This document shows positions 2,150 to 55,179 of a stretch of DNA of 64,000 nt, piece by piece. The notes under the pieces are model-generated. The model had not been told where the DNA came from. It searched no databases and saw only the letters and a list, made by a program, of their open reading frames with translations. The number at the start of each line of letters is the position of its first letter. The first letter of the stretch is position 1. The stretch comes from an uncultured Muribaculaceae bacterium (lineage in GTDB: Bacteria > Bacillota_I > Bacilli_A > RF39 > UBA660), in the NCBI GenBank assembly GCA_964494015.1, contig CAZBQC010000001.1:7551-71550 (forward strand), read 5' to 3'. Position numbers and translations under genes: made by a program.

Positions 2150-2230
2150 AAAAATACACTAGTACTTATTCTTATTTTATGTTATGATATTTGTATAAAA
2201 TATATTGAAGACGATAGGGGACTATTTATG
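2150..2230 (+). repeat. Copy 2 of the duplicated upstream promoter block.
   Basis: See 925-1006. Confidence 0.7.
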
Positions 2231-3175: not shown

Positions 3176-3202
3176 AGTTTATTTCAGTTAAGGAGGTAAT
3201 TC

Positions 3203-5494
3203 ATGTTTGTATTTATATTGGCTGGAGATAGTATAGAAAACTGGATTCGTCAAATCTTTGTTAGTATTGATGTGGGAATTTTTTGGCTATTTGAACAGGT
3301 GTTAGCAAATGTTTTTGTTGTAGCTGGAGTAACTATTTTTAATGAAAAAATTATTAATGAAGTGCTAAATAGAATTTATATAATTATAGGATTATATATT
3401 ACATTTAAATTAGCTTTTTCGATTATCACTTATATTGTTTCTCCTGATAAAATGTCTGATCAGGAACAGGGGTTTGGTAAAATTATTACTAGAGTAATTA
3501 TCGCTTTATCACTTTTAGTTTTAGTTCCCTCTATTTTTGATTATGCTCGGAAAGCTCAATTTTATATTCTTCCAGTAATTCCTAGAATTATCTTGGGAAT
3601 ATCTTTTAACGCTGATGATCCTTCAAATGAAACGAATGAGATCAGTGAATCTACTATTAAACAAATTGCCCAAGCGATGTCATTAAATACTTATTTATCT
3701 GTTTTTAATTATAACACAAACTGTAATGATGCACATAATACGATTGCAGGTACTCCTGAAGCAACGGATCCAAACCAATTTTTAGTTGGCAAAATGAGTC
3801 ATATTTATGGAGCAGTCAATATTATGTGTGGTACTACTGAGGACGAATATAAATTTCAATACACCACATTTGTTGGTTTGGTTTTAGGATGCTTTTTAAC
3901 TTATATGATGTTGGGGATATCCATTGATGTGGCTATTCGAGCAATTAAGCTTGGTTTATTAGAGTTATTAGCTCCGATACCGATTATGAGTTATATTGAC
4001 CCAAAGTCTTCTAAAGATGGGGCATTTAGTAACTGGGTCAAATACTCGATATCAACCTATGTTGATTTGTTTGCCAGAATAAGTATTATATATTTAGTTA
4101 TCTTTTTCTTTGATCAATTATTCCAAGGGAATGTTCTAGGTGAATATGGTGCTCTTGTTTATATATCAATTATTGTTGGAATCTTTTTCTTTATGAAACA
4201 GTTTCCTAAGTTTATCAAAGATATCCTTGGATTAAAAGGTGAAGGACACATGTTTAGGGATGTTCTTACAGGGCGTGGCACTTTTGGATTGGCTACTGGT
4301 ACAATTGGAGGGGCTTACAAAGCTAAAAAAGAAGGTGGGTCAGCATTCCTTGGAGCTATAGGTGGTTTAGGGGGATCTACAAAAAAGTTTCTTAGTAATG
4401 CTGTGAAGGATGAAAGAGGGGGTACAGTTAGACCTGGTGCTAAAGCTGGAGAAGAAGTAGCTAAAGTTAATACCGGTTTTCGTGGAAGAATGAATAGGGC
4501 GGCTGGTGGAGCAAGAGCTAATAGATTAGGATATACACAATCACGAGTTGACGACTTGAGATCAGCTACGGAAAAGGCTAAATTGTTAGCAGATCAAGCT
4601 GGAAAAGAGTATAGTGCTGCTGTAACCTCTCGTAGACCTGCTTCCGAAGTTGATGCGGCACAAGCAAAGTATGATACGGCAAGGGAAGGTTATGAAAATA
4701 TTAATAAACGATATACACAGTTTAAGGGTGCCCGAGATAGTATGGTAAAAGAAATGCCGGCTGGAGAACAAATTGAAGCCGACAAAAAAGTAGCTCGGGG
4801 AAGATTAAAAACTGAGTATAAAGAGAACTTGGGTGCTGCTAGAAGTGAAAGAAAAGAAGTGGCTAGGGAAGCAAAAGAAGCTAGAATAGGTCTAAGAGAG
4901 AGTTATGAAAGTGAAGTGGAACCAGTTTTAAAAAGAAGAACAAAAACTGGTACTAGTGTAAAAAAAATTAATGACGCTATTAGAGATGAAAATGTAAAAC
5001 TAAGCAGAATACAAAGTGATATAGCTGATAGTCAAGGACTTCTTGATGAGTTAGAAGTCGATGGAGATCCTGCCGATGCTTCCAAAATTACTGAGTTAAG
5101 AGCTCACATTAGTGAAAAAGAATTAGAAAAATCAGATATAGAAAACGAAATAAAATTAAAACAAGAGGAGTTGCCAAGTGCAGAAAGAAAGTTTAAAAGA
5201 GCTAATCAAGATGTAAATAGAATAGAGGGGAAATATAGCGCATCTAAAAGAGGAATTAACGCTGCTGCTGCTGGAAATATAGGAGTAGCTAAGCAAAATA
5301 TTAGTGATTTAAAAGATGCTTATAGTAATGCTAAGGAATCAATTGATTCTGGTACTTATCTATTTAGTTCTTCGTCAACATCAAGTCCAGCACCAGCACC
5401 AAGTCCTGCATCAGCGCCAACAACTCCTGAGCCTTCTGCTGAAACTTCTCGATTGGATACTGTTCGACCTGGTGATGACGATGATGTCATGTGA
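3203..5494 (+). CDS. VirB6/TrbL-like polytopic membrane protein with a ~430-aa charged, disordered C-terminal extension.
   Basis: 6-7 predicted TM helices in the first ~340 aa. It sits in a T4SS gene context. The rest is K/E/A/R-rich coiled-coil-like sequence ending in a Pro/Ser-rich and acidic tip (SSPAPAPSPASAPTTPEPS...DDDDVM). RBS AGGAGG. Confidence 0.5.
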   Translation: MFVFILAGDSIENWIRQIFVSIDVGIFWLFEQVLANVFVVAGVTIFNEKIINEVLNRIYIIIGLYITFKLAFSIITYIVSPDKMSDQEQGFGKIITRVIIALSLLVLVPSIFDYARKAQFYILPVIPRIILGISFNADDPSNETNEISESTIKQIAQAMSLNTYLSVFNYNTNCNDAHNTIAGTPEATDPNQFLVGKMSHIYGAVNIMCGTTEDEYKFQYTTFVGLVLGCFLTYMMLGISIDVAIRAIKLGLLELLAPIPIMSYIDPKSSKDGAFSNWVKYSISTYVDLFARISIIYLVIFFFDQLFQGNVLGEYGALVYISIIVGIFFFMKQFPKFIKDILGLKGEGHMFRDVLTGRGTFGLATGTIGGAYKAKKEGGSAFLGAIGGLGGSTKKFLSNAVKDERGGTVRPGAKAGEEVAKVNTGFRGRMNRAAGGARANRLGYTQSRVDDLRSATEKAKLLADQAGKEYSAAVTSRRPASEVDAAQAKYDTAREGYENINKRYTQFKGARDSMVKEMPAGEQIEADKKVARGRLKTEYKENLGAARSERKEVAREAKEARIGLRESYESEVEPVLKRRTKTGTSVKKINDAIRDENVKLSRIQSDIADSQGLLDELEVDGDPADASKITELRAHISEKELEKSDIENEIKLKQEELPSAERKFKRANQDVNRIEGKYSASKRGINAAAAGNIGVAKQNISDLKDAYSNAKESIDSGTYLFSSSSTSSPAPAPSPASAPTTPEPSAETSRLDTVRPGDDDDVM

Positions 5495-5846: not shown

Positions 5847-6378
5847 TTCTAGGTATACCGAAGATTGGATTCCAATCAAAGGTATTAGTGATGGTTCGAT
5901 TTTACTACCTAATAATTATCGAGTTACAGGTGTCAAAATCACTCCTCGAAATATCTTTATTATGGATGATTTGGAGCAAGAAAATGTTATGACGGCTCTA
6001 AAGAATTTCTATAATATGCTTAATTTTGAATTTTGGCTTATTGTGGCAGATCGTCCAGTTGACATATCGGTCTATTTATCCCAGTTGCAACTTTTATACA
6101 ACGATGCCTCTAATCAAGCCATTCGTAAATTAATTAATCAGGATATTAATAAAGCTAATATGTTTATTAATAATAATGTTGTCGATACGGAATATTACTT
6201 ATTATTTAGAGATAAAGATCCGGAGATTATTCAGAAGAAAGTTCGTTTGTTAATTAATGGGCTTGGAAGTTGTGGGCTTAATGCCAGTAAGACAACTGAT
6301 GATGATCTGAGAATAATTCTAGATAATTTCTTAAATGGTGGGGTTAGGACAGAATTTGGAACGGTGGTGCCACTATGA
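5785..6378 (+). CDS. VirB4-family conjugal transfer ATPase, N-terminal segment (separate ORF).
   Basis: The sequence DWIPIKGISDGSILLPNNYRVTGVKITP resembles the N-terminus of Gram-positive VirB4/TraE proteins. Its TGA stop overlaps the ATG of the next ORF (ATGA). The start is uncertain: GTG at 5785 or ATG at 5827. Confidence 0.5.
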   Translation: MSQEDIYGKVGVLHMSQKRSNSRYTEDWIPIKGISDGSILLPNNYRVTGVKITPRNIFIMDDLEQENVMTALKNFYNMLNFEFWLIVADRPVDISVYLSQLQLLYNDASNQAIRKLINQDINKANMFINNNVVDTEYYLLFRDKDPEIIQKKVRLLINGLGSCGLNASKTTDDDLRIILDNFLNGGVRTEFGTVVPL

Positions 6379-8159
6379 GTTTAAAATCAGAAATAGCTCC
6401 TAAAGGATTAGAATGGATGCCTAGTGAGTTTAGAATTAGTGATAAGTATGCCACTTTTTTAACAGTTGTATCTTATCCTAAATTCATTAATCCTGGTTAT
6501 CTATCAAATCTTACTAGTACACCAGGAATTAAGATTGTTATTAAACATATACCTGTACCTTTTTCAACGATTCAAAAGATGCTTAATAAACAAATTGCTG
6601 ATTTAAGGGTTCGCTATAACGAAGAAAAAGACAGGACGATGCAGGAGAGAATTAGACTTGATGCTGAAAGTTTGGAATACTTTGTAACGATGTTAGCTTC
6701 GAGTCAGTCTTTAATCTTTGATTTTCAATTACATATTATGGTTACGGCTGATACTAAAGATGAATTAGAATTAAAGAAAACCAATGTTAAGAATTACTTA
6801 GATGCTATGGAGTTGCGTGCTGTAACTCTTCGTTTTCAGCAAGAAACAATTTTTAAATCGGTTTTACCGATTTTCCCAAAACAGGCTATTGAAGAACGTA
6901 TCGGAACTCCTATTCCTTCAGTGACTGTCGCAGCCATGTATCCGTTTATTTTTGATAGCATTAAGGATCCTGGTTTATCAATTCTTTTTGGAGTAGACTT
7001 TTCTGGTGGTGTTATTCTCTTTAATCAGTTTTTATTTAAGATTCGTAAAGAGACCAATCGAAATAATGCCAATATGGTTATTTTAGGTACTTCAGGTAGT
7101 GGTAAATCTACTGCTGCTAAACTTTTATTGCGTGGTCATATTCGAAATGGTTGTCAAATTGTAGCGATCGACCCCGAAAATGAACTTGAAGAAATGACGA
7201 CGCTTTATGGTGGAGATGTAGTCGATATTGGCAAAGGTGGAGAGTTTGGAATGGTTAATCCTCTTCAAGCCATTATGGATGCCGATGAAGAAGAAGTGGC
7301 CAGTGGTCTTGGATATACTGTTTTAACTAGAACCTTACAATTTTTGAAAGCCTTTATGCGTTATTATTCACCGGATATTCAGGATGATGTTTTAACTCTT
7401 TTCAGTGAAGTTGTTCAAGATACTTATCAGAGATTTGAAATAAATTTTGATACTGATTTTTCAGATTATGAACCGGAAGATTTTCCAACTTTCAGCGATG
7501 TTTATGCTACCATTAAGGGAAGATTGACGTCGATGACCGATGCGACTCATGAACGAGATGTCATGGAACGACTTGAATTAAAAGTACGTCCATTTACTAA
7601 AGAATTAAGATATTACTTTGATGGACCGACAACTATACCATCGGATTCAGACTTTATTGTCTTCAATATTAAAGAGATAATGAATGCTGATACTAATATT
7701 AGAAATGCTTTATTCTTTAATATTTTAAAATATGCTTGGGGACTTTGCTTAGATCAGTCAGTTGATACAGTGTTAATGGTTGATGAAGCCCATGTCCTAT
7801 TAAGTGGCAACAATATTTTAGGAGCCGACTTTTTAGGTCAGGTTCAAAGACGTGCCAGAAAGTATAACACGGGAACGATTATTATTACACAACAACCTAG
7901 TGATTTCTCTGATCCTAATATTATCACTCAAGGTAAGGCTATTTTTGATAATGCCGCCTATTATTTAGTCATGGGACTAAAGAAACAGGCAGTTGAAGAT
8001 TTGTCATTGCTTATTGACTTAAACGATAATGAGAGAGAGAGTATTAAGAGATATTCACAAGGACAAGCCCTGTTTGTCTGTGGTAACCGTAGGATGCAAA
8101 TAGATGTTGTCGTTACTCAAGAAGAATTAGAATCATTCGGTAGTGGCGGAGGATTATAA
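6375..8159 (+). CDS. VirB4-family conjugal transfer ATPase (TraE/PrgJ/TcpF-like), main body.
   Basis: Walker A ILGTSGSGKSTAAK and Walker B LMVDEAH. VirB4-like length and context. Confidence 0.75.
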   Translation: MSLKSEIAPKGLEWMPSEFRISDKYATFLTVVSYPKFINPGYLSNLTSTPGIKIVIKHIPVPFSTIQKMLNKQIADLRVRYNEEKDRTMQERIRLDAESLEYFVTMLASSQSLIFDFQLHIMVTADTKDELELKKTNVKNYLDAMELRAVTLRFQQETIFKSVLPIFPKQAIEERIGTPIPSVTVAAMYPFIFDSIKDPGLSILFGVDFSGGVILFNQFLFKIRKETNRNNANMVILGTSGSGKSTAAKLLLRGHIRNGCQIVAIDPENELEEMTTLYGGDVVDIGKGGEFGMVNPLQAIMDADEEEVASGLGYTVLTRTLQFLKAFMRYYSPDIQDDVLTLFSEVVQDTYQRFEINFDTDFSDYEPEDFPTFSDVYATIKGRLTSMTDATHERDVMERLELKVRPFTKELRYYFDGPTTIPSDSDFIVFNIKEIMNADTNIRNALFFNILKYAWGLCLDQSVDTVLMVDEAHVLLSGNNILGADFLGQVQRRARKYNTGTIIITQQPSDFSDPNIITQGKAIFDNAAYYLVMGLKKQAVEDLSLLIDLNDNERESIKRYSQGQALFVCGNRRMQIDVVVTQEELESFGSGGGL

Positions 8160-8188: not shown

Positions 8189-10567
8189 ATGGATTTATCT
8201 GCACAAAGGAAAAAATTACTAGATCGTAACAATCTAGTAAAAAATCAAAGAAAAAATATTAGTAATAGTAATTCTAATTCTAATTTTAATTCTAATGAAC
8301 AAGACACCTCTAATCCGCTTGCCAATCGTAAACCTCATCCTAATAAATCACTTTTTGGTCGATCAGATGGGGTTGATAAAAATCAAGACTCAAGTGATGA
8401 AACAAAAGATTCTAGTGAACCAGCAAGTACTGCTGGTAATAGCAATGCTGATACTAGTGATGAGTCAACTGATCTTTTAGGTGGTCTTAACAATCAGGTT
8501 TCAGGTAAGATTAAGGGGACTTTGGTTACTAAAGCGTTAGCAGTCGCTAGTCCTTTCCTTTTTGTAGGCATTTTCGTTGTCATTATTATCATTATTGTTA
8601 TTATTGAGTTAAAAAAATATTTACCATTTTTAAGTTATGGTGCTAATACCACTATTAGTGTTAATGCTAATAATACATCTTATAACTCTGTTACTCATAC
8701 GACTTCTGAAACTGATCCATTAAGAGCAAAAGAAGATCTCTTTAATCAAAAATTGGATGAAGTTTGGAATGTTTTCAACGACAAAGCCAATGTAAGTATC
8801 GATATTGATTATATTATCGGAGCTTTGTTTTATGACAAGATTGATCTCCAATTTTTAGAGTCGGAAGATTTGACGACTGAAGAAGTGACCGGTACTTATA
8901 AGAATGGTCTTGAAAAGATTTACATTTTGGCTCAGTATCAAGTTACTACTCACATCTATGAAAATAATGATAGTGGTGAATCTTCAGTTGATCCTACTGA
9001 AAAAAGAGAAGTAGCTAAAAATGATGCATCTGATACTGCTGAGACCTGGTATAAAGAAATTTTTAATGGTACTTGGAATTATGAAGAAGCTAATTTTCAA
9101 ACCCATTATGGAGAATTTGAAAATTTAGATACAGTTTATACCGTCGATGTTTCTAAGAAAGGGGTTTTTTATTGGAATTTAGTTGATGGGGATTTTATTA
9201 CTACTTATTATGCCAATCAATTTACTTCTGATATGACCGATGCTCAAAGAGAGGCTAAAAAAATTATTATTGCCGATAGAATATATCAGTTTGTTGAAGA
9301 CTTTAAAAAAGTTAAAAATAAAAATTATGGATATTTAACTGATGGATTAAAGGTTAATTTATATACCTGTGACTATAATGAAACACTTTATTTCCTTGGT
9401 GGTAACGGGTATAGTGTTTCTACTCTCGCCAATGAAGGAACAAGTTATCCGACTTACACTAATTTTAAAAATTATGTTAAGGGTGCTATTTATGGAGAAA
9501 TACCGTCTAGTATGAATGAAAATACTAAGGAGTCGGTTAAAGCGTTTATTATTGCTTTTAGTAGCTATGCTTTAGCTAGATCTAGTTACAGTAGTGGTGC
9601 TACTGAAATTGATGTCCATGTGGGAAATTGTTGGCAATTATCGTGTGATCCTTTATTAGGATGCCAATATTGCAATAGTAAAATTGGAAAATACGGTACG
9701 AATATAACTGGTGTAGATTCAACCTGTCCACATGGTAGGATTTGGTCGCCAAGAGAACCACTTGACGAGGCAACTAATGCTTGGTTCGATTCAGTTGTCG
9801 ATGAAGTTTTCGGTACAGTTATGATGAATGCTTCAGGAAATTTCTTTCGTGCTGGTCATTATGATAAAAAATCCAACCCAAATTGTGGAGCTAATTGCAT
9901 GGGGCAGGCTGATGCTGTTAAGGATGCTGCAAATGGCATGACTTATGAGCAAATTTTAGCTAAGTATTATTCTGGCTATGAGCTTGTCAATATTAAAGAA
10001 GATTTGTATATCCAAAATGCTAATTATGGTAATGGTGGTGTCGTTCTCAACCAGCTTTTTCATTATCATCAGGGAGATTATACAGAACGTAACTTTTGTG
10101 GTAGATCTGATGCTAGTATTGCTTCATCAGGTTGCGGTGTCGTAGCCGGTGCTATTGCGGTCTCGCTTTTAAAAAACCAGGCTGTTGATCCTAAAACAGT
10201 TATGGAGTTTGCTCATGCCAATAAAATGTGTGGTTATGGTATAAGTGGTACAGATGCGGGAGTATATGAATTGCTGGCTAAGAAACATCAGTTAAATTAT
10301 TCAGTGACCTACAAAGATAATGCTGTTGCTGTTGTCGATGCTTTAAAGACTAGTAAAGCCGTGGTTGTTGCCCATATTCCAGCTGGTACCAGTGGAACTT
10401 ATTCCAGCGGTTCTGGACACTATATCGTTTTTGTGGCCATCAATGCTAATGGACAAGCTTTAGTCTGGGATCCAGGGTATCGAAATAATCCACAACGTGA
10501 TAATGCATGGCATGATATGAATGAATTAGTCAAATATACCGATGCATACTATATATTGTCGAGGTAA
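8189..10567 (+). CDS. T4SS cell-wall hydrolase (VirB1 functional analogue) with a SpoIID/LytB-like domain and a C39-like/papain-like cysteine peptidase domain.
   Basis: N-terminal NSNSNS low-complexity region and a single TM helix (FLFVGIFVVIIIIIVII). ALARSSY...NCWQLSCDP...ILAKYYSGYEL resembles SpoIID. CG...SGCGVVAGA...GHYIVFVAINANGQALVWDPG is a Cys/His/Asp triad layout of the C39_2 type. RBS AGGAGGTGA. Confidence 0.45.
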   Translation: MDLSAQRKKLLDRNNLVKNQRKNISNSNSNSNFNSNEQDTSNPLANRKPHPNKSLFGRSDGVDKNQDSSDETKDSSEPASTAGNSNADTSDESTDLLGGLNNQVSGKIKGTLVTKALAVASPFLFVGIFVVIIIIIVIIELKKYLPFLSYGANTTISVNANNTSYNSVTHTTSETDPLRAKEDLFNQKLDEVWNVFNDKANVSIDIDYIIGALFYDKIDLQFLESEDLTTEEVTGTYKNGLEKIYILAQYQVTTHIYENNDSGESSVDPTEKREVAKNDASDTAETWYKEIFNGTWNYEEANFQTHYGEFENLDTVYTVDVSKKGVFYWNLVDGDFITTYYANQFTSDMTDAQREAKKIIIADRIYQFVEDFKKVKNKNYGYLTDGLKVNLYTCDYNETLYFLGGNGYSVSTLANEGTSYPTYTNFKNYVKGAIYGEIPSSMNENTKESVKAFIIAFSSYALARSSYSSGATEIDVHVGNCWQLSCDPLLGCQYCNSKIGKYGTNITGVDSTCPHGRIWSPREPLDEATNAWFDSVVDEVFGTVMMNASGNFFRAGHYDKKSNPNCGANCMGQADAVKDAANGMTYEQILAKYYSGYELVNIKEDLYIQNANYGNGGVVLNQLFHYHQGDYTERNFCGRSDASIASSGCGVVAGAIAVSLLKNQAVDPKTVMEFAHANKMCGYGISGTDAGVYELLAKKHQLNYSVTYKDNAVAVVDALKTSKAVVVAHIPAGTSGTYSSGSGHYIVFVAINANGQALVWDPGYRNNPQRDNAWHDMNELVKYTDAYYILSR

Positions 10568-11326: not shown

Positions 11327-14290
11327 GTGAAATTAAAAATTAGAGCAGAATCAAAAGATGCTACAATCTTCATCATTTTTGCAGTTTTTCTTTTATATTT
11401 AGTAGCAGTCGGAGTACTTAATTTATCTAGTTTTGCCAGTTTTGGTGAATTTTATGGTTTAAATCCAATTGAAGCCTTTTCAGGTCGTTTTATTGTCCCA
11501 ACTATTATCTTTTATTTAATCGCTTTAGGCTCACTCTTCTTTACGACGGGATCATACTTTTTTGATTTAGAAGAGGGGATTGGTTTTTCTATCGGTTCAA
11601 AAAAAGAAAAGGGTTATAGTCGCTGGGCAACGGCTAAAGAAATGAAGAAAGAGTTAAAACTTGTTTATCCTCATGAAGAGAATTCTAGATATGCGGGTAT
11701 TCCTCTTATTAATAATGGTAAAGAAATCTGGGTTGACGACAGTCATTACCATAATTTAGTTATCGGTTCAACGGGTAGTGGTAAGACAACAGCTGTTATT
11801 TTCCCGATGGTCAGATTGCTTGCTAAACATAATGAATCAATGATTATTACCGATCCTAAAGGTGAAATTTATGAAAAGATGGCTGTCATGCTTAAATCAC
11901 GTGGTTACAATATCGTTTTATTGAATTTCCGTAATCCTCAAAATGGTAATTCATGGAATCCATTATCGATGCCATATAATCTATATAAAAATGGCAATCA
12001 GGATAAATCAATCGAGTTACTTGATGACTTAGCGCTTAATATCTTGTATGATGAAACTAATAAAAATGCCGATCCTTTCTGGGAAAAGACCTCGGCCGAT
12101 TATTTTTCTGGTATTGCTCTAGGTCTATTTGAGGATGCTGATCCGTCACAAATCAATATCAACAGTATCAGTTTAATGTCGACAGTCGGCGAAGAAAAAT
12201 TTGGTGGTTCGACCTATATTAAAGAATATTTTAATGGAAAAGATCCTACTGGTTCAGCCTTCATCAATGCTTCCAGTACGATTTTGGCACCAAGTGAAAC
12301 CAAGGGAGGGATTCTAGCTGTCTTTAAGCAAAAGATAAAACTTTTCGCTTCTCGTGAAAACCTATCAGAAATGCTTTCACATAGTGATTTTGATTTGTCG
12401 GATATTGGTAAAAAGAAAACCGCTTTATTCATCATTATTCAGGATGAGAAGAAAACCTATCATTCTTTGGCGACAATCCTTTTAAAACAGTGTTATGAAA
12501 CTTTAATCGACGTGGCTCAAGATAATGGTGGCGAACTGCCCATTAGAACTAATTTCTTAGTTGATGAGTTTGCCAATATGCCACCTTTAAAAGATATTGA
12601 CGTTATGATTACAGCAGCTCGAAGTAGAAAAATTCGTTTTACTTTGATCATTCAAAACTTTGCTCAGTTAAATGAAATTTATGGTAAAGAAACAGCTGAA
12701 ACTATTAAGGGTAACTGTGGAAATATGCTTTATTTGATCAGTACCGAGTTAGCTGCTTTGGAAGAGATAAGTAAAATGTGTGGTGAAGTAAAATCTAAAG
12801 AGAAGGATAAAACTGCTTCGACACCATTAATTACCGTCACTGATTTACAAAAATTAAAGTTAAATGAGGTCATTATCCGAAGAATTCGTCTTTCGCCATT
12901 TAAGACTAAATTAAAGGCCGAATACGAAATGAATTGGGGAAGAACTTATCCGAAAGCTCAGTATCCAGTTCGTGAAAAACAACCGATCAATATCTTCGAT
13001 ATGAGGACTTTTGTCAAAGAAAAAAAGAAAGCTAAGATGAATGAAATTTTGAATATGGATGCCAGTGGCAGTGATCCAATGGGAGGGTTTAATCCTAATA
13101 TGCCACCGTTCTTTAATCAAAATATGTTTAACAGTGAATCGCCGCCAGTTCAGGCTAATCCATATGGGATGAATGATCTTCCTCCTAATAATAACGATTT
13201 TAATATCGATGACTTGGTTAAGAAAATTGATCAGAAGATTGCTGAACTGGAAGAGGAAGAAAAAAGAAATAATCTGGCCATCGCAGCTGAGAATACCAAT
13301 TTACTGGAAGAACCAAAGGCAAGTCCTAATTTAGATCAAGCTATGGACAATTTTAAAATTGATCAGCCAATGATGGAAGAAAAACAGGTTGCTGAAGTCA
13401 GTCCTAGTCCAGGACCAGTATCATCGGAAAAAATTGTTGATTCTGATGTCGTCAATCAACCAAAAAACAATATTTTAGAAGCGGTCCCAATTCCAAACAA
13501 TAATTATTTTGAACCAATTTCTAAGAAGGAAGTTGTGCCAGCTAATATTAATTATCGTGATTTATATAATGACGAAGAAGATTCTGGCGGTGCGGTTCGG
13601 GAGATGGATAATATCAATCCCAAGGCTATTTATAACGTTTTAGAATCAACTAATTATGAATTGCCTAAAGAAGATAGACCGATTATTAAGGATGAGAAAC
13701 CTTTAGAAGACAAGGTAGTGGTAAGTGAACCAGTTAAGGAGGAACAACCAATACTAAATGCTGATTCCATACCAGTTAATGAAGAGGAGATTAATGATTT
13801 ATTTAAGAGTTTGAAAAATAATGTCGAGGAAGAAACTTTCTTTGATCAAAGAACACCTTTAAATAACAGTTTCAGTAGTCGACCTCGCTGGTTTGCTGTC
13901 GAAGAAGAGAACCAAGGTTATACAGCAGTTAGAAGACCAAAATCAAATAATCAGAACTCAGCTTTTGATTCAACTAACCACCCTAATGATAAAGTTTTTG
14001 ATAAGGGTTTGCCAGAAGATAGTTTTATCAGTCAGGAAACAGTCAATTTAAAACCAGTTGATCAACCAGTGGTAGTTGAGAAAGTAAAGTTGGAAACTGA
14101 TGATCTGTTTAAACCTAAAGACGCTAATCTCAATTGGTTTTCCGAACACGAAAATGATATAAAAAGTACAACTTTAGCAATTAATCCGGAAAATCTTCAA
14201 GAAGATATCAAGCAAGAAACCGTTAATGAAGAAACCGAATATAACGAAATAACTGATGATCAATTCTTTGATGATTTCTTTGATGACTAG
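11327..14290 (+). CDS. Type IV coupling protein (VirD4/TraG-like ATPase) with a very long acidic disordered C-terminal tail.
   Basis: N-terminal TM helices. Walker A LVIGSTGSGKTT, a DPKGE motif and Walker B LVDEFANMP. About 430 C-terminal residues are low complexity (N/P/E/D-rich) and end in DDQFFDDFFDD. Confidence 0.7.
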   Translation: MKLKIRAESKDATIFIIFAVFLLYLVAVGVLNLSSFASFGEFYGLNPIEAFSGRFIVPTIIFYLIALGSLFFTTGSYFFDLEEGIGFSIGSKKEKGYSRWATAKEMKKELKLVYPHEENSRYAGIPLINNGKEIWVDDSHYHNLVIGSTGSGKTTAVIFPMVRLLAKHNESMIITDPKGEIYEKMAVMLKSRGYNIVLLNFRNPQNGNSWNPLSMPYNLYKNGNQDKSIELLDDLALNILYDETNKNADPFWEKTSADYFSGIALGLFEDADPSQININSISLMSTVGEEKFGGSTYIKEYFNGKDPTGSAFINASSTILAPSETKGGILAVFKQKIKLFASRENLSEMLSHSDFDLSDIGKKKTALFIIIQDEKKTYHSLATILLKQCYETLIDVAQDNGGELPIRTNFLVDEFANMPPLKDIDVMITAARSRKIRFTLIIQNFAQLNEIYGKETAETIKGNCGNMLYLISTELAALEEISKMCGEVKSKEKDKTASTPLITVTDLQKLKLNEVIIRRIRLSPFKTKLKAEYEMNWGRTYPKAQYPVREKQPINIFDMRTFVKEKKKAKMNEILNMDASGSDPMGGFNPNMPPFFNQNMFNSESPPVQANPYGMNDLPPNNNDFNIDDLVKKIDQKIAELEEEEKRNNLAIAAENTNLLEEPKASPNLDQAMDNFKIDQPMMEEKQVAEVSPSPGPVSSEKIVDSDVVNQPKNNILEAVPIPNNNYFEPISKKEVVPANINYRDLYNDEEDSGGAVREMDNINPKAIYNVLESTNYELPKEDRPIIKDEKPLEDKVVVSEPVKEEQPILNADSIPVNEEEINDLFKSLKNNVEEETFFDQRTPLNNSFSSRPRWFAVEEENQGYTAVRRPKSNNQNSAFDSTNHPNDKVFDKGLPEDSFISQETVNLKPVDQPVVVEKVKLETDDLFKPKDANLNWFSEHENDIKSTTLAINPENLQEDIKQETVNEETEYNEITDDQFFDDFFDD

Positions 14291-47736: not shown

Positions 47737-50700
47737 GTGATTATTTTGAAAAAAAGACAAGTTTTAATTTTTAAGTTTAAACGCTTTCTTACCAATATTA
47801 AAGAAAAAAGAATAATCCTATCAATTATTTCTGTTTTGTTGTTGATAGGTTTAGTTATTGGAGTCAGTTATGCCATCTTAGAATACCAAACTAATAAATC
47901 AGTCGATAATTTGTTGACAACGACAGTTGGTGAATTATCGATAACTTTTTCTTCTAATAGCAATACCATTGCCCTTGAAAATGCTCAACCGGTGTCTGAT
48001 CAACAGGGGCTTCTACAAGCTCCATACACTTTCACGGTTTCTAGTTCGAGCTCTTATGATGTTTATTTTGTTGTTAAATTAAATGAATTTTATTATAACA
48101 GTAGCACCCATGATGATACAGGGTTACAGTTTCCAGATAACACTTTGAAAATAAATGTCGATAATGGTACTTCATCATCGACGAATTATTTGACTAATAG
48201 TTATACTGTTGTTGACGATACGATTCCAGGTCAAGGTACACAAAACAAAACCTATTCAATTAGAATTTGGATCGATGAAAATGCTGGTAGTGAGGTAAGT
48301 GGTAAGCATTATCATGGTCGAATCGAACTGATTAATTCTCACAGCGATCAATTAAGTTCACTAGTACAATATAATTTAAAGAATAACTTATTTACTCCTG
48401 CAGAGGATACTGAACAGACTTTTATTGTCGGAACAGCTAGCGACGATAACTATGAACCGAATAATTACTTATGGTACAGTGGCAAAATGTGGCGAATCCT
48501 AGCTTTAAATAAAACAGATGGAGCAGTGACATCCATTAAAGTAATTACTCAAAACTTAATGACAGCTACGTTTAGAAATGGAACGGTTGAAAATGGTGGC
48601 AGTGGACTAAGTTCTATATACGAAAATAGTTATATGTATCAATGGTTGAATGAAGATTTTTATGATACCTTAAGGAGTCCAACTAATTTTGTTGTGACCA
48701 ATTACTTGTGGAATGCCACACAAACTTCAAGTGTTAGTAAACCTCTTAATACGACGATGGTAGCTGGTAATGTCGGATCATTAAATCTTTACGAGTACGT
48801 CAAGAGTTATACAAATACTACCGCAGCTAACGGCTATTTAAATCTTAGCTATAATTGGTGGTTGATAAATCCACACCCTACAACCGACTGGGCCAATTTT
48901 GTTGATTCTAATGGTTATATTGGTAGTGATATTTTTTCCAATATATTTTCAATTCGTCCAGCGATAAACTTAAAACCCAATCTGCTTGTAGTTAAAGGGA
49001 ACGGAACGAGTTCTAATCCCTATCGATTAGAAGGAGATAACGATGAAGAAGAAGATTTACTAAACGATAATTTAAACACTAGGTATAGTGGGGAATATGT
49101 CAGATTTAATAATGAGGATTATCGAATCATGAAAATAGAAGGAAATCTTACTAAAATTGTCAAAGTTGATTATCTTAAATCATCAGGTGAAAATTTATCA
49201 TTAGCCTATGCTTCCGGCAGTAATTATTTATATTCTTCTTCCATCTCTGGCGGTACTAGTTATTGGGGAGGATACTTAAATACTACTTGGTATGATGGTT
49301 TATCTACAAGTGATAAAAACATGGTTGAAACAGGAACTTGGTATTCAGGGGTGGTTACTTTAAATACCAGTTATAAAAAAAGTATTTGCGAGACAGTGGC
49401 TGTTGGAACTTTAACGAGTACTTGCGGTAAGACTACCTTATCGACCACGGCCAAAGTCGGTCTTATTAGATTAGGAGAAATGTTTTCAAGTCAACTTGGT
49501 GATATTGGAAGTGCAGTTAATTTTCGACTACTGACTCCATACTCAACGAGTGGTTCGGTTTTTTTGAACCAAAATACGGCAACAACGGCTACTTCTGCGG
49601 TTACTACTTCTTATGCCACCAGACAGACTTTGTATTTAAAATCCAATGTAAAAATAGTTAGTGGAGATGGTACACCTGATAATCCATTTATTATTGAAGG
49701 TCTATCAACAATTCTAGATAAAATTAATTCAGATCTAAGTAGTAATTTATATACCCCATCTGGTGATACTGATCAAACTTTTATTGTCGGAACAAGTAGT
49801 GATACAAATTATAAGCCAAATAATTATCTATGGTATAGTGGCAAACTATGGAGAATTGTGGCATTAAATAAAACTTCCGGGGTGGTAACTTCTGTAAAAA
49901 TAATAACTCAGAACTTAATGTCAGGTTTTTATCGTTCCAGTTCACAGTATGACTTGGTATATTATGGAAGTTATATGTACCAATGGTTTAAGGAAGATTT
50001 TTATGATACATTAAGAAATCCGACTAACTTTATTGTTACTAACTATCTGTGGAATGCTACCGCAGTTACGAATAGTAATAAACCACCTACTACAACAATG
50101 GTAGCTGGTAATGTTGGGTCCTTAAATGGCTATGAATATGTAAAGTCATACACTAATACCACCGCTGCCAATGGCTATTTAAATCTTGGTTGTTACTGGT
50201 TTCTAATAAGCCCGGAGTCTGGTAGTTCAAATGGTATCTGGAGTGTCAGTACTACTGGTGCATATTCTTCGTATTCAGCATCTAATCGATTTTCAATTCG
50301 TCCAGCCGTCAATTTAAAAGCCGATTTATGCATTGTGAGTGGAAATGGGACAAGTACTAGTCCTTATCGTTTAGAGGGAGATAATGATCAAGAGGTTGAT
50401 TTATTAAACGATGGTTTAAATACGAGGTACAGTGGAGAATATGTCAAGTTTGCTGGTGAAGATTATCGAATTATGAAAGTAGAAGGCAGTCTAACTAAGA
50501 TCGTCAAGGTTGATTATCTTAAGTCGGAAGGAACAATTGTAACTAAGGCTTTTGCTGCCAGTAGTTCTTTATATTCAGCTTCTATTTCTGGTGGAACTAA
50601 TTATTGGGGAGGGTATTTAAATACAACCTGGTACGGTAGCTTAAGCACAGATTATCAAAATATGATTGAAACAGGGACTTGGTATTCAGGAACGGTAGGT

Positions 50701-51042
50701 TCGCAGGCAAGTTATAAATTAAGTATTTGTGCCACTGTAACAACCGGAACTTTAACAAGTACTTGTACTAGGACGACTGTATCAACTACTGCTAAAATCG
50801 GATTAATTAGGTTAGGAGAAATGTTTTCCAGTCATCTTGCTATTAGTGGAGAAGCTGCTAGTTTCCGTTTATTAACTCCAGATTCAAGCAGTACTGTCTT
50901 TTATGGACCCACTAATGCCAACATATTTACCGGTGCTGTTACTACTGCTTATGCTACAAGACCGACATTCTATCTTAAAGCAGGTGTCTATATTACTGAC
51001 GGCGACGGCACACCTAGCAATCCTTTTACCATTGCTATGTAA
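47737..51042 (+). CDS. Large N-terminally anchored surface protein built from two tandem ~440-aa repeats.
   Basis: A TM helix at residues 25-47. Repeat 1 (~48350-49690) and repeat 2 (~49690-51040) share LYTP..DT[ED]QTFIVGT.SD.NY.PNNYLWYSGK.WRI.ALNKT.G.VTS.K.ITQNLM and the remaining sequence at ~75% nt identity. Confidence 0.55.
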   Translation: MIILKKRQVLIFKFKRFLTNIKEKRIILSIISVLLLIGLVIGVSYAILEYQTNKSVDNLLTTTVGELSITFSSNSNTIALENAQPVSDQQGLLQAPYTFTVSSSSSYDVYFVVKLNEFYYNSSTHDDTGLQFPDNTLKINVDNGTSSSTNYLTNSYTVVDDTIPGQGTQNKTYSIRIWIDENAGSEVSGKHYHGRIELINSHSDQLSSLVQYNLKNNLFTPAEDTEQTFIVGTASDDNYEPNNYLWYSGKMWRILALNKTDGAVTSIKVITQNLMTATFRNGTVENGGSGLSSIYENSYMYQWLNEDFYDTLRSPTNFVVTNYLWNATQTSSVSKPLNTTMVAGNVGSLNLYEYVKSYTNTTAANGYLNLSYNWWLINPHPTTDWANFVDSNGYIGSDIFSNIFSIRPAINLKPNLLVVKGNGTSSNPYRLEGDNDEEEDLLNDNLNTRYSGEYVRFNNEDYRIMKIEGNLTKIVKVDYLKSSGENLSLAYASGSNYLYSSSISGGTSYWGGYLNTTWYDGLSTSDKNMVETGTWYSGVVTLNTSYKKSICETVAVGTLTSTCGKTTLSTTAKVGLIRLGEMFSSQLGDIGSAVNFRLLTPYSTSGSVFLNQNTATTATSAVTTSYATRQTLYLKSNVKIVSGDGTPDNPFIIEGLSTILDKINSDLSSNLYTPSGDTDQTFIVGTSSDTNYKPNNYLWYSGKLWRIVALNKTSGVVTSVKIITQNLMSGFYRSSSQYDLVYYGSYMYQWFKEDFYDTLRNPTNFIVTNYLWNATAVTNSNKPPTTTMVAGNVGSLNGYEYVKSYTNTTAANGYLNLGCYWFLISPESGSSNGIWSVSTTGAYSSYSASNRFSIRPAVNLKADLCIVSGNGTSTSPYRLEGDNDQEVDLLNDGLNTRYSGEYVKFAGEDYRIMKVEGSLTKIVKVDYLKSEGTIVTKAFAASSSLYSASISGGTNYWGGYLNTTWYGSLSTDYQNMIETGTWYSGTVGSQASYKLSICATVTTGTLTSTCTRTTVSTTAKIGLIRLGEMFSSHLAISGEAASFRLLTPDSSSTVFYGPTNANIFTGAVTTAYATRPTFYLKAGVYITDGDGTPSNPFTIAM

Positions 51043-51059
51043 CAAATATTATATTTTTG

Positions 51060-51088
51060 TTGACATTGTCATATAATATGTGTATAAT
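51060..51088 (+). promoter_or_regulatory. Consensus sigma-A promoter of the infC-rpmI-rplT operon.
   Basis: TTGACA (51060-65), a 17-nt spacer, then TATAAT (51083-88). Confidence 0.6.
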
Positions 51089-51094
51089 TATCAT

Positions 51095-51240
51095 GTAAAT
51101 TTAAAAAGAAAGAGATTTTTATCCACCCGATTATGAATAGTAATGGGTCAAAAGCTTGTTTTAAAATATTATTTTAATATTTAATAGGTTTTTAAGTGGA
51201 TAGAGATATCCACTTTTTAATTATTTTGGAGGTGTTTTAT
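51095..51240 (+). promoter_or_regulatory. infC leader with terminator/antiterminator geometry. It is a candidate L20-responsive attenuator.
   Basis: A 9-bp perfect hairpin AAGTGGATA gaga TATCCACTT (51194-51215) with a downstream U-run. An upstream ATCCAC (51121-26) could alternatively pair with GTGGAT (51196-51201). Confidence 0.45.
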
Positions 51241-51768
51241 ATAGCTGTTTCGAAAGGTAATTTGCTAATTAACGATCAGATCAAAGTTAGTCATGCCTTA
51301 GTTATCGGTCCGAACGGAGAGCAAGTAGGTGTCAAGTCAATCGGCGATGCTCTAACTTTGGCGTCTTATGCCAATTTAGATTTAGTGTTGATTAATCCAA
51401 CCGGTACGCCACCGGTCTGTAAAGTTATGGACTATAACAAGTATCGTTACGAAAAGTCGAAAAAAGAGAAGGAAGCTTTAAGACGTCAACGAGTCAATAG
51501 TGTCGAAACCAAAGAGTTTCGTCTTTCGCCTAATATCGATGTTGGAGATTTTGAAACCAAGATTAATAATGTTACAAAATACTTATTAAAAGGTGACAAG
51601 ATTAAGTTAACGATTAGGTTTAAAGGTCGTCAGTTGGCACACATCGATTTAGGGAAGGAAGTCTTAATTCGTTTTGCTAATCGCTTAATGGATATTGCTG
51701 AAGTTGTGGAAAATCCTAAGTTAGATGGTAAGAACATGTCAATGCTAATTTCACCGAAAAAAAAGTAA
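51241..51768 (+). CDS. infC: Translation initiation factor IF-3, probably starting at a non-canonical ATA codon.
   Basis: The IF-3 sequence begins (I)AVSKGNLLINDQIKVSHALVIGPNGEQ. RBS GGAGGTG (51228-34) is followed 6 nt later by in-frame ATA 51241. The only in-frame upstream NTG is GTG 51196, which lies inside the leader hairpin and has no RBS. Confidence 0.8.
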   Translation: MAVSKGNLLINDQIKVSHALVIGPNGEQVGVKSIGDALTLASYANLDLVLINPTGTPPVCKVMDYNKYRYEKSKKEKEALRRQRVNSVETKEFRLSPNIDVGDFETKINNVTKYLLKGDKIKLTIRFKGRQLAHIDLGKEVLIRFANRLMDIAEVVENPKLDGKNMSMLISPKKK

Positions 51769-51783: not shown

Positions 51784-51972
51784 ATGCCTAAATTAAAGAC
51801 TCATAAAGGAGTAAAAAAAGTTTTAAAAGTAAGAAAAGGTGGTACGATTAGTATCGGTATGCCAGGTGGAAGACATAATACTGGCAAAAAGAATGCGAAA
51901 GTAAATCGTAAAAAAAGAAAGGGTTCAGTATTAGCGCAAGCTGATCAGAAGAGATTAAAAAATTTAATTTAA
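51784..51972 (+). CDS. rpmI: 50S ribosomal protein L35.
   Basis: [20 protein letters not shown]... RBS AGGAGGAG. Confidence 0.9.
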
Positions 51973-51997: not shown

Positions 51998-52597
51998 ATG
52001 GCAAGAGTAAAAAACGGAGTTGTTACCAAAGCACGTCGTAAAAAGGTTTTAAAGGCAGCTAGTGGTTATTTTGGTAGCAAACATAGATTATTTAAGACCG
52101 CCAGAGAGCAATTGATGCATTCTGGCCAATATGCTTTTCGTGATCGTAGACAAAAGAAAAGAGAATTTAGAAAATTATGGATTACGAGAATTAATGCTGC
52201 CTGTCGTGAAAACGGAATTAGTTATTCGAGATTTATTGAAGGATTAAGTAAGGCTTCTGTCGAAGTCAACAGAAAGATGTTGAGTGAGATTGCAATTAAC
52301 GATCCTAAAGCTTTCAGTGAATTAGTGAAGGTAGCAAAAGATGGTAAAGCCGGAAAAGTTAAAAAAGAAGTTGAAAAACAAAAAACGGATCAGGTAGTTA
52401 AAGAAGAAGTTAAAGTCGAAAAACCAGTTAAAATTGAAAAGAAAGTAACGATCAAAACGAAAGTTACCAAAGAGAAAGAAAGTATCGACTATCGTAAATT
52501 GACGGTAGCTGAATTAAAAGAATTAGCTAAAAAGGCTAAAGTCGAAGGCTTTTCAACCATGAAGAAAAATAAATTGATAGAAAGTCTTCAAAAATAA
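51998..52597 (+). CDS. rplT: 50S ribosomal protein L20 with a ~80-aa K/E-rich C-terminal extension ending in a Rho_N-like motif.
   Basis: The L20 core [19 protein letters not shown]...[14 protein letters not shown]. The tail ends [32 protein letters not shown]. Confidence 0.88.
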
Positions 52598-52621
52598 ACA
52601 TATTAATGGATTTAAATGCCT

Positions 52622-52650
52622 AGTGCTTGAGTTCTCAAGTGGTGTTTATT
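52622..52650 (+). terminator. Terminator after rplT.
   Basis: GCTTGAG tt CTCAAGT hairpin followed by GGTGTTTATT. Confidence 0.45.
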
Positions 52651-52688
52651 AGAAATTAATAGAAGATTAAACGAAAAGGAGAAGAAAT

Positions 52689-53735
52689 ATGACTGTTATT
52701 TCAATGAGTTATTTATTAGAAGCAGGTGTTCATTTTGGACACCAAAAGAAAAGATGGAATCCAAAGATGAAGGAGTATATCTTTTCATCACGTGATGATA
52801 TTTATATTATCGATTTACAAAAGACGGTTAAAAAGCTAGAAGAAGCTTATACTAAGTTAGAAGAAATTACTAAGAATGGTGGCAAGGTTATCTTTGTTGG
52901 AACTAAAAAGCAAGCTAAAGAAGCGGTCGAAGAATGTGCTAACCGTACAAAGATGTATTTTGTCAGTGAAAGATGGTTAGGAGGAACTCTAACTAATTTC
53001 AAGACCATTAGAAGCCGAGTTAGAAGACTTGAAGAAATCGAAAAGATGGAAAAGGATGGTATTTTTGAAATTCTACCTAAAAAAGAAGTATCTTTATTAA
53101 ATAAAGAATATCAGAAGCTTAATCGTTATTTAAGAGGAATTAGAGACATGGAAAAACTTCCTCAAGCAATGATTATTGTCGATCCACAAAAGGAATTAAA
53201 TGCCATTCATGAAGCTAAAAAGTTACATATTCCCGTCGTTGGACTGGTCGATACTAATGGCGACCCGGATTTAGTCGATTATGTCATTCCTGGTAATGAT
53301 GATGCTGTCAGGTCAGTCAAACTAGTGTTAGGTGGCTTAACTAATGCCATTGCTAGTGTCAATGGCAACGAAGTCATCGATTATGTAGTTGAAGATGAAA
53401 AAGGTGCTAAAAAAACTAAGGTTCATGAAAGTAAAGAAGAGTCTGTTTTAGTTGAAGAAGTGATAACCAAAGAAGAAGTAAAAGAAGAAATTAAAGAAGA
53501 AATTAAAGAAGAAATTAAAGAAGAAATTAAAGAAGAGGTTATCGTTAACGAGGAAGTACCAGTAGCTCCTAAAAAGACCAGAGTTAAAAAAGAAGTAGCG
53601 AAGAAAGAACCAGAAATATCTCTTAAGAACCTTTCTAAGATGAATATTACTGAATTAAAGGCTCTTGCTAAAGAAAAGGGTATTAAAGGTTATTCTAAGT
53701 TAAAAAAAGATGAATTAATTAAAGAATTAAAATAG
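52689..53735 (+). CDS. rpsB: 30S ribosomal protein S2 with a ~95-aa acidic/basic C-terminal extension ending in a Rho_N-like motif.
   Basis: The S2 core [27 protein letters not shown]. The tail carries (EEIK)n and ends [29 protein letters not shown]. Confidence 0.9.
53484..53531 (+). repeat. In-frame 12-nt tandem repeat, four perfect copies.
   Basis: The unit GAAGAAATTAAA encodes EEIK repeats inside rpsB. Confidence 0.85.
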
Positions 53736-53744
53736 GAGAGAGAC

Positions 53745-54617
53745 ATGACAAGTGCAAATGATATTAAAGCTTTGAGGGAAAAAACGGGTGCTGGATTTTC
53801 AGACTGCAAAAAAGCCTTAGAAGCTACTAATAATGATATGGAAAAAGCTATTGATTGGTTACGTGAAAAAGGAATTAGCAGTGCGGCTAAAAAAGAGGCG
53901 AGGATTGCGGCTGAAGGACTTTGCAATATTCAGGTTGTTGGAAATACTGCTGTCATCGTCGAAGTTAATTCAGAAACTGATTTTGTAGCTAGGAATATAG
54001 AATTTCAAAATTTATGTCAGTTTCTTGCTACTCAAATTTTAAATAATGACGTTACTGATTTAGAGAGTGTTTTTAATTTAAAAACAACTGACGGAACAGT
54101 CAAAGATACAATTATTAGTTACATTTCTAAAATTGGAGAAAAATTATCTTTAAGACGTTTTGCAAAATTAGTGAAAGAAGAAAATCAAGTGTTTGGAACT
54201 TATTTACATATGGGTGGTAAAATTGGAGTCTTGGTTCTTTTAGATGGCAATGATCAAGAAGTAGCCAAGGATGTTGCTATGCATATTGCAGCGATGAAAC
54301 CAAGTTATATTAGTCGTAATGAAATAAGTAGTGAGACTTTAGAAAAAGAAAAAGCAATTATCAAGGAACAAGCGATCAACGAAGGGAAATCTCCAGAAAT
54401 AGCTGAAAAGATGATTACTGGTCGCATCAATAAATTTTATCAAGAAGTCTGCCTACTTGAACAATTATTTGTTAAAAATGATGATCTTCAAGTAGGAGTC
54501 TATGTTCAAAATCATCAAAGTGCCGTCAAGCAAATGATTCGTTTCGAAGTTGGAGAAGGACTTGAAAAAAGATGTGAAGATTTTGCCGAAGAGGTCATGA
54601 AACAGATTAGGAATTAA
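53745..54617 (+). CDS. tsf: Elongation factor Ts.
   Basis: The N-terminal UBA-like IKALREKTGAGFSDCKKALE. Confidence 0.9.
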   Translation: MTSANDIKALREKTGAGFSDCKKALEATNNDMEKAIDWLREKGISSAAKKEARIAAEGLCNIQVVGNTAVIVEVNSETDFVARNIEFQNLCQFLATQILNNDVTDLESVFNLKTTDGTVKDTIISYISKIGEKLSLRRFAKLVKEENQVFGTYLHMGGKIGVLVLLDGNDQEVAKDVAMHIAAMKPSYISRNEISSETLEKEKAIIKEQAINEGKSPEIAEKMITGRINKFYQEVCLLEQLFVKNDDLQVGVYVQNHQSAVKQMIRFEVGEGLEKRCEDFAEEVMKQIRN

Positions 54618-54621: not shown

Positions 54622-55179
54622 ATGAAGAAGTATTTGATATTATTATTAATCGTGGTTTTGGTTGGAAGTGGATGTACGATTACTAAATTAAAGAAAGATA
54701 GTATTAGTTTTAGTGAAGAGTATAATATCAGTAAAAATAATATGTTTGTCTATGCAACAGCAGACGAAGTAATCGATATTTTAAAAAAGGGAACGGGAAT
54801 AATTTATTTTGGTTTTCCTGAATGCCCATGGTGTCAAGCAGCTATCAAGATGTTTTATGAGGTAGCCAGCAAGAAAAATGTCGAGAAGGTATATTATCTG
54901 AATATTAAAGAAATGCGCAATCAAAACACGAAAGAATATCAAGATATTGTTACTTTGATTAGCGATTATTTATACAAGGATTCGCAAGATCAAAAAAGAA
55001 TCTTTGTACCAGATTTCTACTTTGTAAAAGATGGAAAAGTTCTTTATCATAATAACGATATGTCGACTAATAGTGGGGATATAGAAGAATATTTAACTGA
55101 TGAAGTTAAAGAAGAGATCAAAGGTAAATACTTGGAAGGAATTGTCAAAATTTATTCAGTCAGTTGTAAAGAATGTTAA
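54622..55179 (+). CDS. Thioredoxin-fold lipoprotein with a CxxC motif.
   Basis: Lipobox LVGSGC and redox motif FPECPWCQ. Confidence 0.55.
   Translation: MKKYLILLLIVVLVGSGCTITKLKKDSISFSEEYNISKNNMFVYATADEVIDILKKGTGIIYFGFPECPWCQAAIKMFYEVASKKNVEKVYYLNIKEMRNQNTKEYQDIVTLISDYLYKDSQDQKRIFVPDFYFVKDGKVLYHNNDMSTNSGDIEEYLTDEVKEEIKGKYLEGIVKIYSVSCKEC

Follow-up and report, generated by a model that had tools for sequence, protein, structure and literature searches.

Two adjacent ribosomal proteins, bL20 (gene rplT) and uS2 (rpsB), carry C-terminal extensions that end in the same small helix, extended loop, helix (HeH) domain in a 64,000-nucleotide stretch of contig CAZBQC010000001.1 (GenBank assembly GCA_964494015.1), here called the window. 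Judged by profile matches, both tails are domains of the HeH superfamily (Rho_N / SAP / LEM). The HeH domain recurs in two phyla, on uS2 and on either bL20 or bL21, and the window feature is one case of a recurrent design in which a ribosomal-protein (r-protein) core is followed by a tether of low complexity and then by a small helical module. The proteins that most often bear such tails are uS2 and bL20/bL21. The reading favoured here, held at about even confidence, is that the tails would serve as ribosome-tethered RNA-binding arms. Bacterial ribosomes are usually treated as nearly uniform, and in this case a conserved domain would be tethered from both subunits.

A first-pass annotation of the window had described a bL20 of 199 amino acids (aa) and a uS2 of 348 aa, both with C-terminal extensions. 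The open reading frames (ORFs) are as described, and the tail sequences that it quoted are correct.

Identity of the tails

bL20 passes the equivalog model TIGR01032 (167.5 bits, cut-off 65.65), and uS2 passes TIGR01011 (330.2 bits, cut-off 76.3). Behind the cores, both tails exceed the gathering cut-off of the Pfam family Rho_N (PF07498, 24.9 bits): the bL20 tail scores 29.0 bits (E 1.1e-6; 31.2 bits when scanned alone) and the uS2 tail 36.0 bits (E 6.7e-9; 37.1 bits when scanned alone). The first-pass proposal that one and the same Rho_N-type module stands on both proteins was thus borne out. For the SAP family (PF02037, cut-off 23.9 bits) the window tails reach 14.7–22.1 bits, below the threshold, and some relatives pass it, such as the L21 tail of Polaribacter at 26.2 bits; on these scores the relation of the tails to SAP is at clan level only.

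A profile built from 18 diverse tails (A1) was compared with the PDB, and matched the N-termini of Rho (7oqh_A residues 57–89, E 2.4e-6; 8hsj_A residues 19–51, E 5e-6; 3l0o_A, E 1.7e-3) as well as the SAP domain of Ku70 (1jjr, E 2e-9 over two copies; 1jeq, E 0.01). The tail modules, of about 35 aa, align to positions 1–34 of the 43-position Pfam Rho_N model, with the protein ending after helix 2, and the NCBIfam rho models match the tails over positions 4–40 only. Pfam recognises just the ribosomal core and Rho_N in both proteins, with neither the Rho OB-fold (PF07497) nor the RecA-type ATPase present. The tails therefore share a domain with Rho, not kinship with Rho as a factor.

AlphaFold2, run on a single sequence for bL20 and on a 28-sequence alignment for uS2, predicts that both tails form a helix, an extended loop and a second helix, separately folded behind a disordered linker. 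The predicted helices lie at residues 170–179 and 190–198 of bL20 (pLDDT 80–91), and at residues 320–330 and 340–347 of uS2 (pLDDT 84–87); a further, low-confidence helix is predicted within the uS2 linker, at residues 262–283.

A six-frame phmmer search of the window, covering 1010 open segments over 64 kb, matched the bL20 and uS2 tails to each other (E 1.3e-4 and 5.5e-4) and found no third HeH carrier, the next-best matches having E > 3. Beyond the window, 10,992 representative proteins match the tail profile at E <= 1e-3, and the best 150 of these mostly contain several tandem HeH copies, with no further r-protein among them. Together with carriers among the bL21 and uS2 proteins of Flavobacteriaceae, these matches mean that the module is specific neither to one lineage nor to bL20 and uS2. 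The first-pass annotation took the shared module to suggest a lineage-specific function such as RNA tethering or localisation, a reasonable hypothesis. The feature is lineage-wide but not exclusive, since the same module is also found on Flavobacteriaceae bL21 and uS2 and on many other proteins.

One such protein (P0388, locus L162) is 128 aa long; it begins with a transmembrane helix, continues with a linker rich in K and E, and has an HeH that is nearly identical (Pfam Rho_N, 42 bits). This protein may use the HeH module while anchored in the membrane, and its composition hints at uses of the module away from the ribosome.

Conservation of module and tether

The homologue sets comprised, for L20 and S2 alike, the best 120 clusters listed. 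Every cluster is built of the core and PF07498, with SAP (PF02037) in its place in a few L20 rows. Lengths range from 177 to 202 aa for L20 and from 302 to 359 aa for S2, bar three assembly chimeras with internal duplications. That the clusters share this architecture shows that the extensions are not read-through products; a comparison of lengths among relatives had been suggested by the first-pass annotation.

Mean pairwise identity in S2 is 0.83 for the core, 0.26 for the linker and 0.69 for the HeH; the corresponding values in L20 are 0.93, 0.40 and 0.76. From these identities it follows that the HeH has been kept almost as strictly as the ribosomal core, with the tether free to vary, a pattern that indicates strong selection on the module and not on the tether. 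The L20 linker measures 23–48 aa among the homologues, with a composition of 24% K, 23% E and 16% V, and the S2 linker measures 40–97 aa, with a median net charge of -5. Within the window, the uS2 linker is partly encoded by a 12-bp tandem repeat (Tandem Repeats Finder score 122, 96% matches), the recent expansion of which implies that linker length changes by replication slippage.

Carriers in Bacilli and Flavobacteriaceae

Genomes were scanned at one per species (GTDB representatives), and, from 145 confirmed matches, the best 80 loci were analysed. The scan patterns were derived from L20-type tails only (A2), biasing hits towards L20-like tails; as both this locus set and that for the helix-hairpin-helix tails described below consist of the best 80 pattern-selected loci, carrier counts are indicative and not a census. 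Taxon names are those of the record titles.

A six-frame search of the 80 loci with hidden Markov models (HMMs) yielded 90 carriers, comprising 42 bL20, 36 uS2 and 12 bL21 proteins, and the module was C-terminal in all 90. The L20 carriers and most of the S2 carriers are on low-GC contigs (GC 0.23–0.34), with titles that include uncultured Bacilli, Tenericutes, Mollicutes, Erysipelotrichaceae, Candidatus Faecimonas, Candidatus Coprosoma, Clostridium sp. CAG:1000, Anaeroplasmataceae and Acholeplasma equifetale. Wherever an intact adjacent rplT–rpsB pair was present among the loci, both genes encoded tails (10/10), and in one metagenome-assembled genome (MAG) the two tailed genes are on separate contigs (L048 and L060). 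An apparent exception, L020, was rejected, as its S2 tail is present but broken by in-frame stops on an error-prone contig. The bL21 encoded at one Bacilli locus (L008) is 99 aa long and has no tail.

Seven loci (L012, L017, L035, L039, L057, L069 and L076) are titled Bacteroidaceae, Muribaculaceae or Sphaerochaetaceae, and have Bacilli-type cores, HeH tails and a GC content of 0.25–0.29. These titles are probably binning or labelling errors.

The 12 carriers that are neither L20 nor S2 are all bL21 proteins of Flavobacteriaceae, from Robertkochia, Polaribacter, Arenibacter, Aquimarina, a Maribacter-labelled MAG and other MAGs. In each of them the L21 core is followed by a linker rich in A, K and P and then by the HeH (Pfam Ribosomal_L21p, and Rho_N at 45 bits). 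The module is also found on uS2 at two Flavobacteriaceae loci (L065 and L073), and in the homologue search uS2 with Rho_N was common among MAGs of marine Flavobacteriaceae. Across the four groups, the tails share 61–77% identity, partly because they lie near the family consensus and partly because of locus selection.

bL21 contacts bL20 in bacterial ribosomes (bioRxiv 10.64898/2026.07.03.736309; see also PMC7804294), and in both phyla, therefore, one tail would arise from the same 50S patch and one from uS2 on the 30S. This co-occurrence of a uS2 tail with a 50S tail holds within single genomes for Bacilli, and at the family level for Flavobacteriaceae. The HeH-tailed design thus extends across a large group of gut Bacilli, most of them uncultured, and reappears in marine Flavobacteriaceae.

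Replacement of the module

The terminal module of uS2 varies among the Flavobacteriaceae. Many of these proteins end in HeH, some have the linker without a terminal domain (P0497, P0488, P0493 and P0504), and those of Sediminicola, Cellulophaga and Croceitalea end in a module of about 85 aa that contains a helix-hairpin-helix (HhH; PF14520, 30–36 bits against a cut-off of 27). The HhH-tailed uS2 aligns end to end with the NCBIfam extended-S2 model NF008966, and its tail matches NF008915 and NF008916, the extended-L21 models, over their C-terminal parts, as well as DNA polymerase lambda fingers and HhH models of the RadA/RecG type. The module follows the pattern DDLTK[IV]EGIGPK...TWPKQAxMAAxGKWDELKxWQDELDGGK, behind A/K/P/E-rich linkers.

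A metagenome scan for this HhH module gave 80 loci (L082–L161), of which 36 encode uS2, 16 bL21, one bL20 and 27 other proteins. Among the latter, Pfam confirmed bL27, bL17, bL19, uS5, uL15 and bS1; bS16 was recognised by eye, from sequence only, and the remainder include contig-end fragments without a core, a three-copy protein and one non-ribosomal protein. By these assignments, the HhH domain decorates about ten different r-proteins in marine metagenomes. HeH and HhH tails were never found together in the locus sets examined, and the window contains no HhH module.

NCBIfam further contains models of "sunset domain variants" for precisely L20 and S2 (NF051450 and NF051451). The window L20 aligns at positions 1–158 of the 219 of NF051450 (144.7 bits, below the cut-off of 375), and the window S2 at positions 1–224 of the 382 of NF051451 (264.2 bits, below the cut-off of 710). 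Identity of the sunset domain with the HeH module was rejected, as the window proteins match these models over the core and part of the linker only. Since the alignments stop short of the tail, "sunset" would be a third, different tail on the L20/S2 pair in some other lineage; no mention of the term was found in the open-access literature.

Proposed role and alternatives

The cores of bL20 and uS2 would occupy their usual ribosomal places, and the tails would consequently project from the solvent surface of both subunits. The bL20 tail would leave the 50S at the bL20/bL21 patch, and the exit point of the uS2 tail on the 30S would be between the head and the body, close to bS1 and to the 5' side of the mRNA. 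From these positions the tails could act as ribosome-tethered, low-specificity nucleic-acid-binding arms, for which the likeliest ligand would be RNA in trans, either mRNA or the rRNA of the ribosome itself or of its neighbours. With such binding, the ribosome would have a higher local affinity for RNA.

Another class of nucleic-acid module that binds the backbone is the HhH. We infer low-specificity nucleic-acid binding by the HeH from its superfamily membership, from its replacement by HhH in close relatives and from the precedent of RHON1, an Arabidopsis protein. The last 40 aa of RHON1 form a Rho-N motif that follows a highly acidic stretch, and bind RNA in gel shifts, including fragments of the 16S and 23S rRNA (PMC3458557). 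The tails are genuine Rho_N-family domains, as had been assumed when nucleic-acid binding was first ascribed to them, but for an isolated HeH the evidence of binding comes from RHON1 and SAP, not from Rho. The variable length of the tether and the net acidic charge of the S2 linker suggest reach towards a ligand in trans, as opposed to fixed docking.

A number of points weigh against RNA-binding arms. In Rho itself, RNA is bound mainly by the adjacent OB-fold (PF07497), and the HeH subdomain is not the main surface. For SAP and HhH domains, double-stranded DNA (dsDNA) is the better-known ligand, and for this reason the ligand of the tails could be DNA. The 50S tail site is far from the mRNA path, and the presence of HhH on many r-proteins implies that any solvent-exposed C-terminus may serve, which weakens site-specific models. 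The solved chains that matched tailed L21 and S2 all leave the HeH unaligned, and in F. johnsoniae both bL21 (147 aa) and uS2 (254 aa) are without it. The taxonomic picture is also biased, derived as it is from the pattern-selected best 80 loci.

DNA is the ligand in the first alternative, which we consider unlikely: HeH and HhH would bind dsDNA without specificity and keep ribosomes at the surface of the nucleoid, which would favour co-transcriptional translation. Rho and the DNA-binding SAP domain of Ku70 are matched equally well by the tail profile, the SAP scores of the window tails are just below threshold, and the HhH swapped into Flavobacteriaceae uS2 resembles DNA polymerase and RadA/RecG-type modules. 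Placement on the solvent face of both subunits would likewise suit a non-directional tether. The acidic S2 linker would oppose DNA binding, however, and the sole experimental datum on a C-terminal Rho-N motif of such architecture is RNA binding (PMC3458557).

It is improbable that the HeH binds its own rRNA in cis, during assembly or in the mature particle, as many lineage-specific extensions do. bL20 is an early 50S assembly protein, a point in favour of this proposal, and the carriers include reduced-genome Bacilli and "Tenericutes"; the 16S and 23S fragments bound by the RHON1 motif are of the same kind of ligand (PMC3458557). Fixed docking, however, is poorly compatible with a linker that varies two-fold or more in length and expands by slippage, and close relatives swap in an unrelated HhH or, in some cases, keep only the linker. 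uS2 is, moreover, a late and loosely bound protein.

A role as a protein–protein adaptor appears similarly improbable. Here the HeH would recruit a partner to the ribosome surface, such as an RNase, a helicase, an HeH protein anchored in the membrane, or a transcription factor by which the N-terminus of Rho is also recognised. RHON1 works with RNase E (PMC3458557), many multi-HeH proteins exist, and the membrane-anchored protein P0388 combines a K/E linker with a near-identical HeH. Yet no candidate partner is conserved beside rplT or rpsB, the P0388 contig is 877 bp long and provides no context, and the substitution of HhH for HeH points to a nucleic-acid ligand common to both modules, not to a specific protein partner.

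Low complexity and poor conservation of the linker, and the Flavobacteriaceae uS2 proteins that have a linker without a terminal domain, would fit a charged tail that has no specific ligand and acts as an entropic or solubility "bristle", with the HeH as a tolerated cap. This is highly improbable given that the HeH is conserved almost as strongly as the core and recurs in two phyla at homologous positions. An artefact can be dismissed: only the low-complexity nature of the linker speaks for it, read-through of a missed stop is refuted by the clean TAA and TAG stops, the conserved HeH and the >200 independent homologue clusters with the same architecture, and a chance or low-complexity match by the Pfam gathering scores and by reciprocal tail matches that are unique in the window.

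Ribosome-tethered RNA-binding arms could also be viewed as part of something wider. We put forward, as a speculation that we doubt more than we credit, that unrelated lineages have independently fitted uS2 and the bL20/bL21 patch with interchangeable tethered nucleic-acid-binding modules (HeH, HhH and "sunset"), amounting to an unrecognised system on the ribosome surface by which ribosomes would be physically joined to mRNA, to the nucleoid or to one another. Such a system might, for example, supplement bS1 or act as a device for transcription–translation coupling. If the tails bind RNA or DNA, then the finding of mRNA by ribosomes, or the cellular position or clustering of ribosomes, would be altered, with consequences for translation in organisms that have reduced genomes or make no use of Shine–Dalgarno sequences. 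Cultured carriers exist, including Acholeplasma equifetale (uS2), Polaribacter, Arenibacter and Robertkochia (bL21), and Cellulophaga and Sediminicola (HhH form), making the question experimentally tractable.

Relation to known systems

The closest relative by fold class is the N-terminus of Rho (PF07498, in a clan with SAP, LEM and HeH), to which the tails have significant sequence similarity, that of Mycobacterium tuberculosis included. In contrast to Rho, the tails are C-terminal, stand on ribosomal proteins and are accompanied by neither OB-fold nor ATPase. SAP domains are eukaryotic chromatin and DNA-repair modules that bind DNA; those of Ku70, Tho1 and PIAS share the HeH fold, and the window tails fall below the SAP cut-off. 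RHON1 resembles the tailed proteins in that its C-terminal Rho-N motif of about 40 aa follows a highly charged stretch, but differs in being non-ribosomal, eukaryotic and plastid-targeted, and in acting with RNase E (PMC3458557).

Among annotated r-proteins, the same architecture is represented by NF011109 (PRK14537), named "50S ribosomal protein L20/unknown domain fusion protein", in which positions 188–225 align to the HeH tail. The window L20 matches this model over core and tail with 176.4 bits, below the cut-off of 187, which the Anaeroplasmataceae L20 of locus L022 passes with 190. By this alignment, the "unknown domain" of NF011109 is an HeH domain of the Rho_N/SAP type. No matching model for S2 or L21 fusions with HeH was seen in the NCBIfam scans. 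The HhH-tailed (NF008966; NF008915/NF008916) and "sunset" r-proteins share the design of core, linker and module, and the same favoured hosts of uS2, bL21 and bL20, but their terminal domains differ from HeH, and the window proteins align with them over core and linker only. Ordered lineage-specific extensions, such as the C-terminal helix of Bacteroidetes bS6 and those of chloroplast bL21c and uL13c, make fixed contacts with rRNA or neighbouring proteins (bioRxiv 10.64898/2026.07.03.736309). They are lineage-restricted in the same way, whereas the tails described here would be autonomous domains on a long disordered tether.

The bare observation is already in databases, in the form of the NCBI L20 fusion model and of precomputed public Pfam architectures. 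The open-access literature yielded no description of bacterial L20, L21 or S2 with tails of the Rho_N, SAP or HhH type, and what appears to be new is the pattern of HeH on uS2 and bL20 in Bacilli, and on uS2 and bL21 in Flavobacteriaceae. Selection on the module and not the tether, and the exchange of HeH for an HhH that decorates about ten r-proteins, appear to be new as well.

Gene arrangement and the rest of the window

The tailed genes follow infC and rpmI and precede tsf (Table 1). The sigma-70-type promoter upstream of infC probably drives infC–rpmI–rplT, and possibly rpsB–tsf too. Neither a terminator-like site nor a strong promoter match was found in the gap between rplT and rpsB, and the two may consequently form one transcription unit; the first-pass annotation had placed them in adjacent operons.

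Table 1. Features of the rplT–rpsB region and of the two tailed proteins, in window coordinates
Feature	Position	Strand	Evidence or remark
Promoter, sigma-70-type consensus (TTGACA-17-TATAAT)	51060..51088	+	12/12 match, 5' of infC
infC (IF3)	51196-51768	+	Ordinary length, no tail; Pfam IF3_N/IF3_C on identical Logan contig
rpmI (bL35)	51784-51972	+	Ordinary length, no tail; Pfam Ribosomal_L35p on identical Logan contig
rplT, bL20 with C-terminal extension, 199 aa, TAA stop	51998..52597	+	
bL20 core, residues 3-109	52004..52324	+	Pfam PF00453, E 1e-47
bL20 linker, residues ~120-161, K/E/V-rich, predicted disordered	52355..52480	+	AlphaFold2 pLDDT < 50
bL20 HeH / Rho_N module, residues 164-199	52487..52594	+	Pfam PF07498 (residues 164-197)
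rpsB, uS2 with C-terminal extension, 348 aa, TAG stop	52689..53735	+	
uS2 core, residues 9-222	52713..53354	+	Pfam PF00318, E 2e-95
uS2 linker, residues ~232-311, K/E-rich, net acidic	53382..53621	+	pLDDT < 50 at 234-267, 274-311
12-bp tandem repeat, 5.7 copies, encodes (KEEI)n in uS2 linker	53469..53536	+	Tandem Repeats Finder
uS2 HeH / Rho_N module, residues 314-348	53628..53732	+	Pfam PF07498 (residues 315-346)
tsf (EF-Ts), 290 aa, ordinary length, no tail	53745..54617	+	Directly 3' of rpsB; identified by eye

A hairpin with a T-run at 51194–51215 overlaps the listed GTG start of infC. It may be a leader or attenuator of the infC–rpmI–rplT unit, and infC perhaps starts at a non-canonical codon further downstream. 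Rfam, run over the whole window, gave no family at gathering score and recognised no L20 or S2 leader, and neither rho nor rpsA was found in the window or in the flanks examined.

Upstream of the promoter, positions 47737–51042 encode a 1101-aa protein with an N-terminal hydrophobic segment and two internal duplicates of about 540 aa, the sole Pfam match of which is DUF6273. Between tsf and pyrH, a 185-aa ORF (54622–55179) has a lipoprotein-like signal (…LVGSGC) and a thioredoxin-like CPWC motif, and has no Pfam match at E <= 1e-5.

Taken as a whole, the window is chromosomal DNA of an ordinary kind from a low-GC bacterium (GC about 0.32), with nearly all genes on one strand, and its other genes include those for BipA, PolA, UvrC, MutL, Lon, TopA and RuvB, as well as a conjugative-element segment. 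GC skew is positive in all 2-kb bins but one across positions 1–64000, and the long ORFs are nearly all on the + strand, consistent with a leading-strand segment without an internal replication origin or terminus. The conjugative segment comprises genes for a VirB4/TraG-like P-loop ATPase (6375–8159) and a VirD4-type type IV secretion coupling protein (11327–14290), surrounded by large ORFs without Pfam matches (1004–5494 and 8189–10567), and looks like part of an integrated conjugative element.

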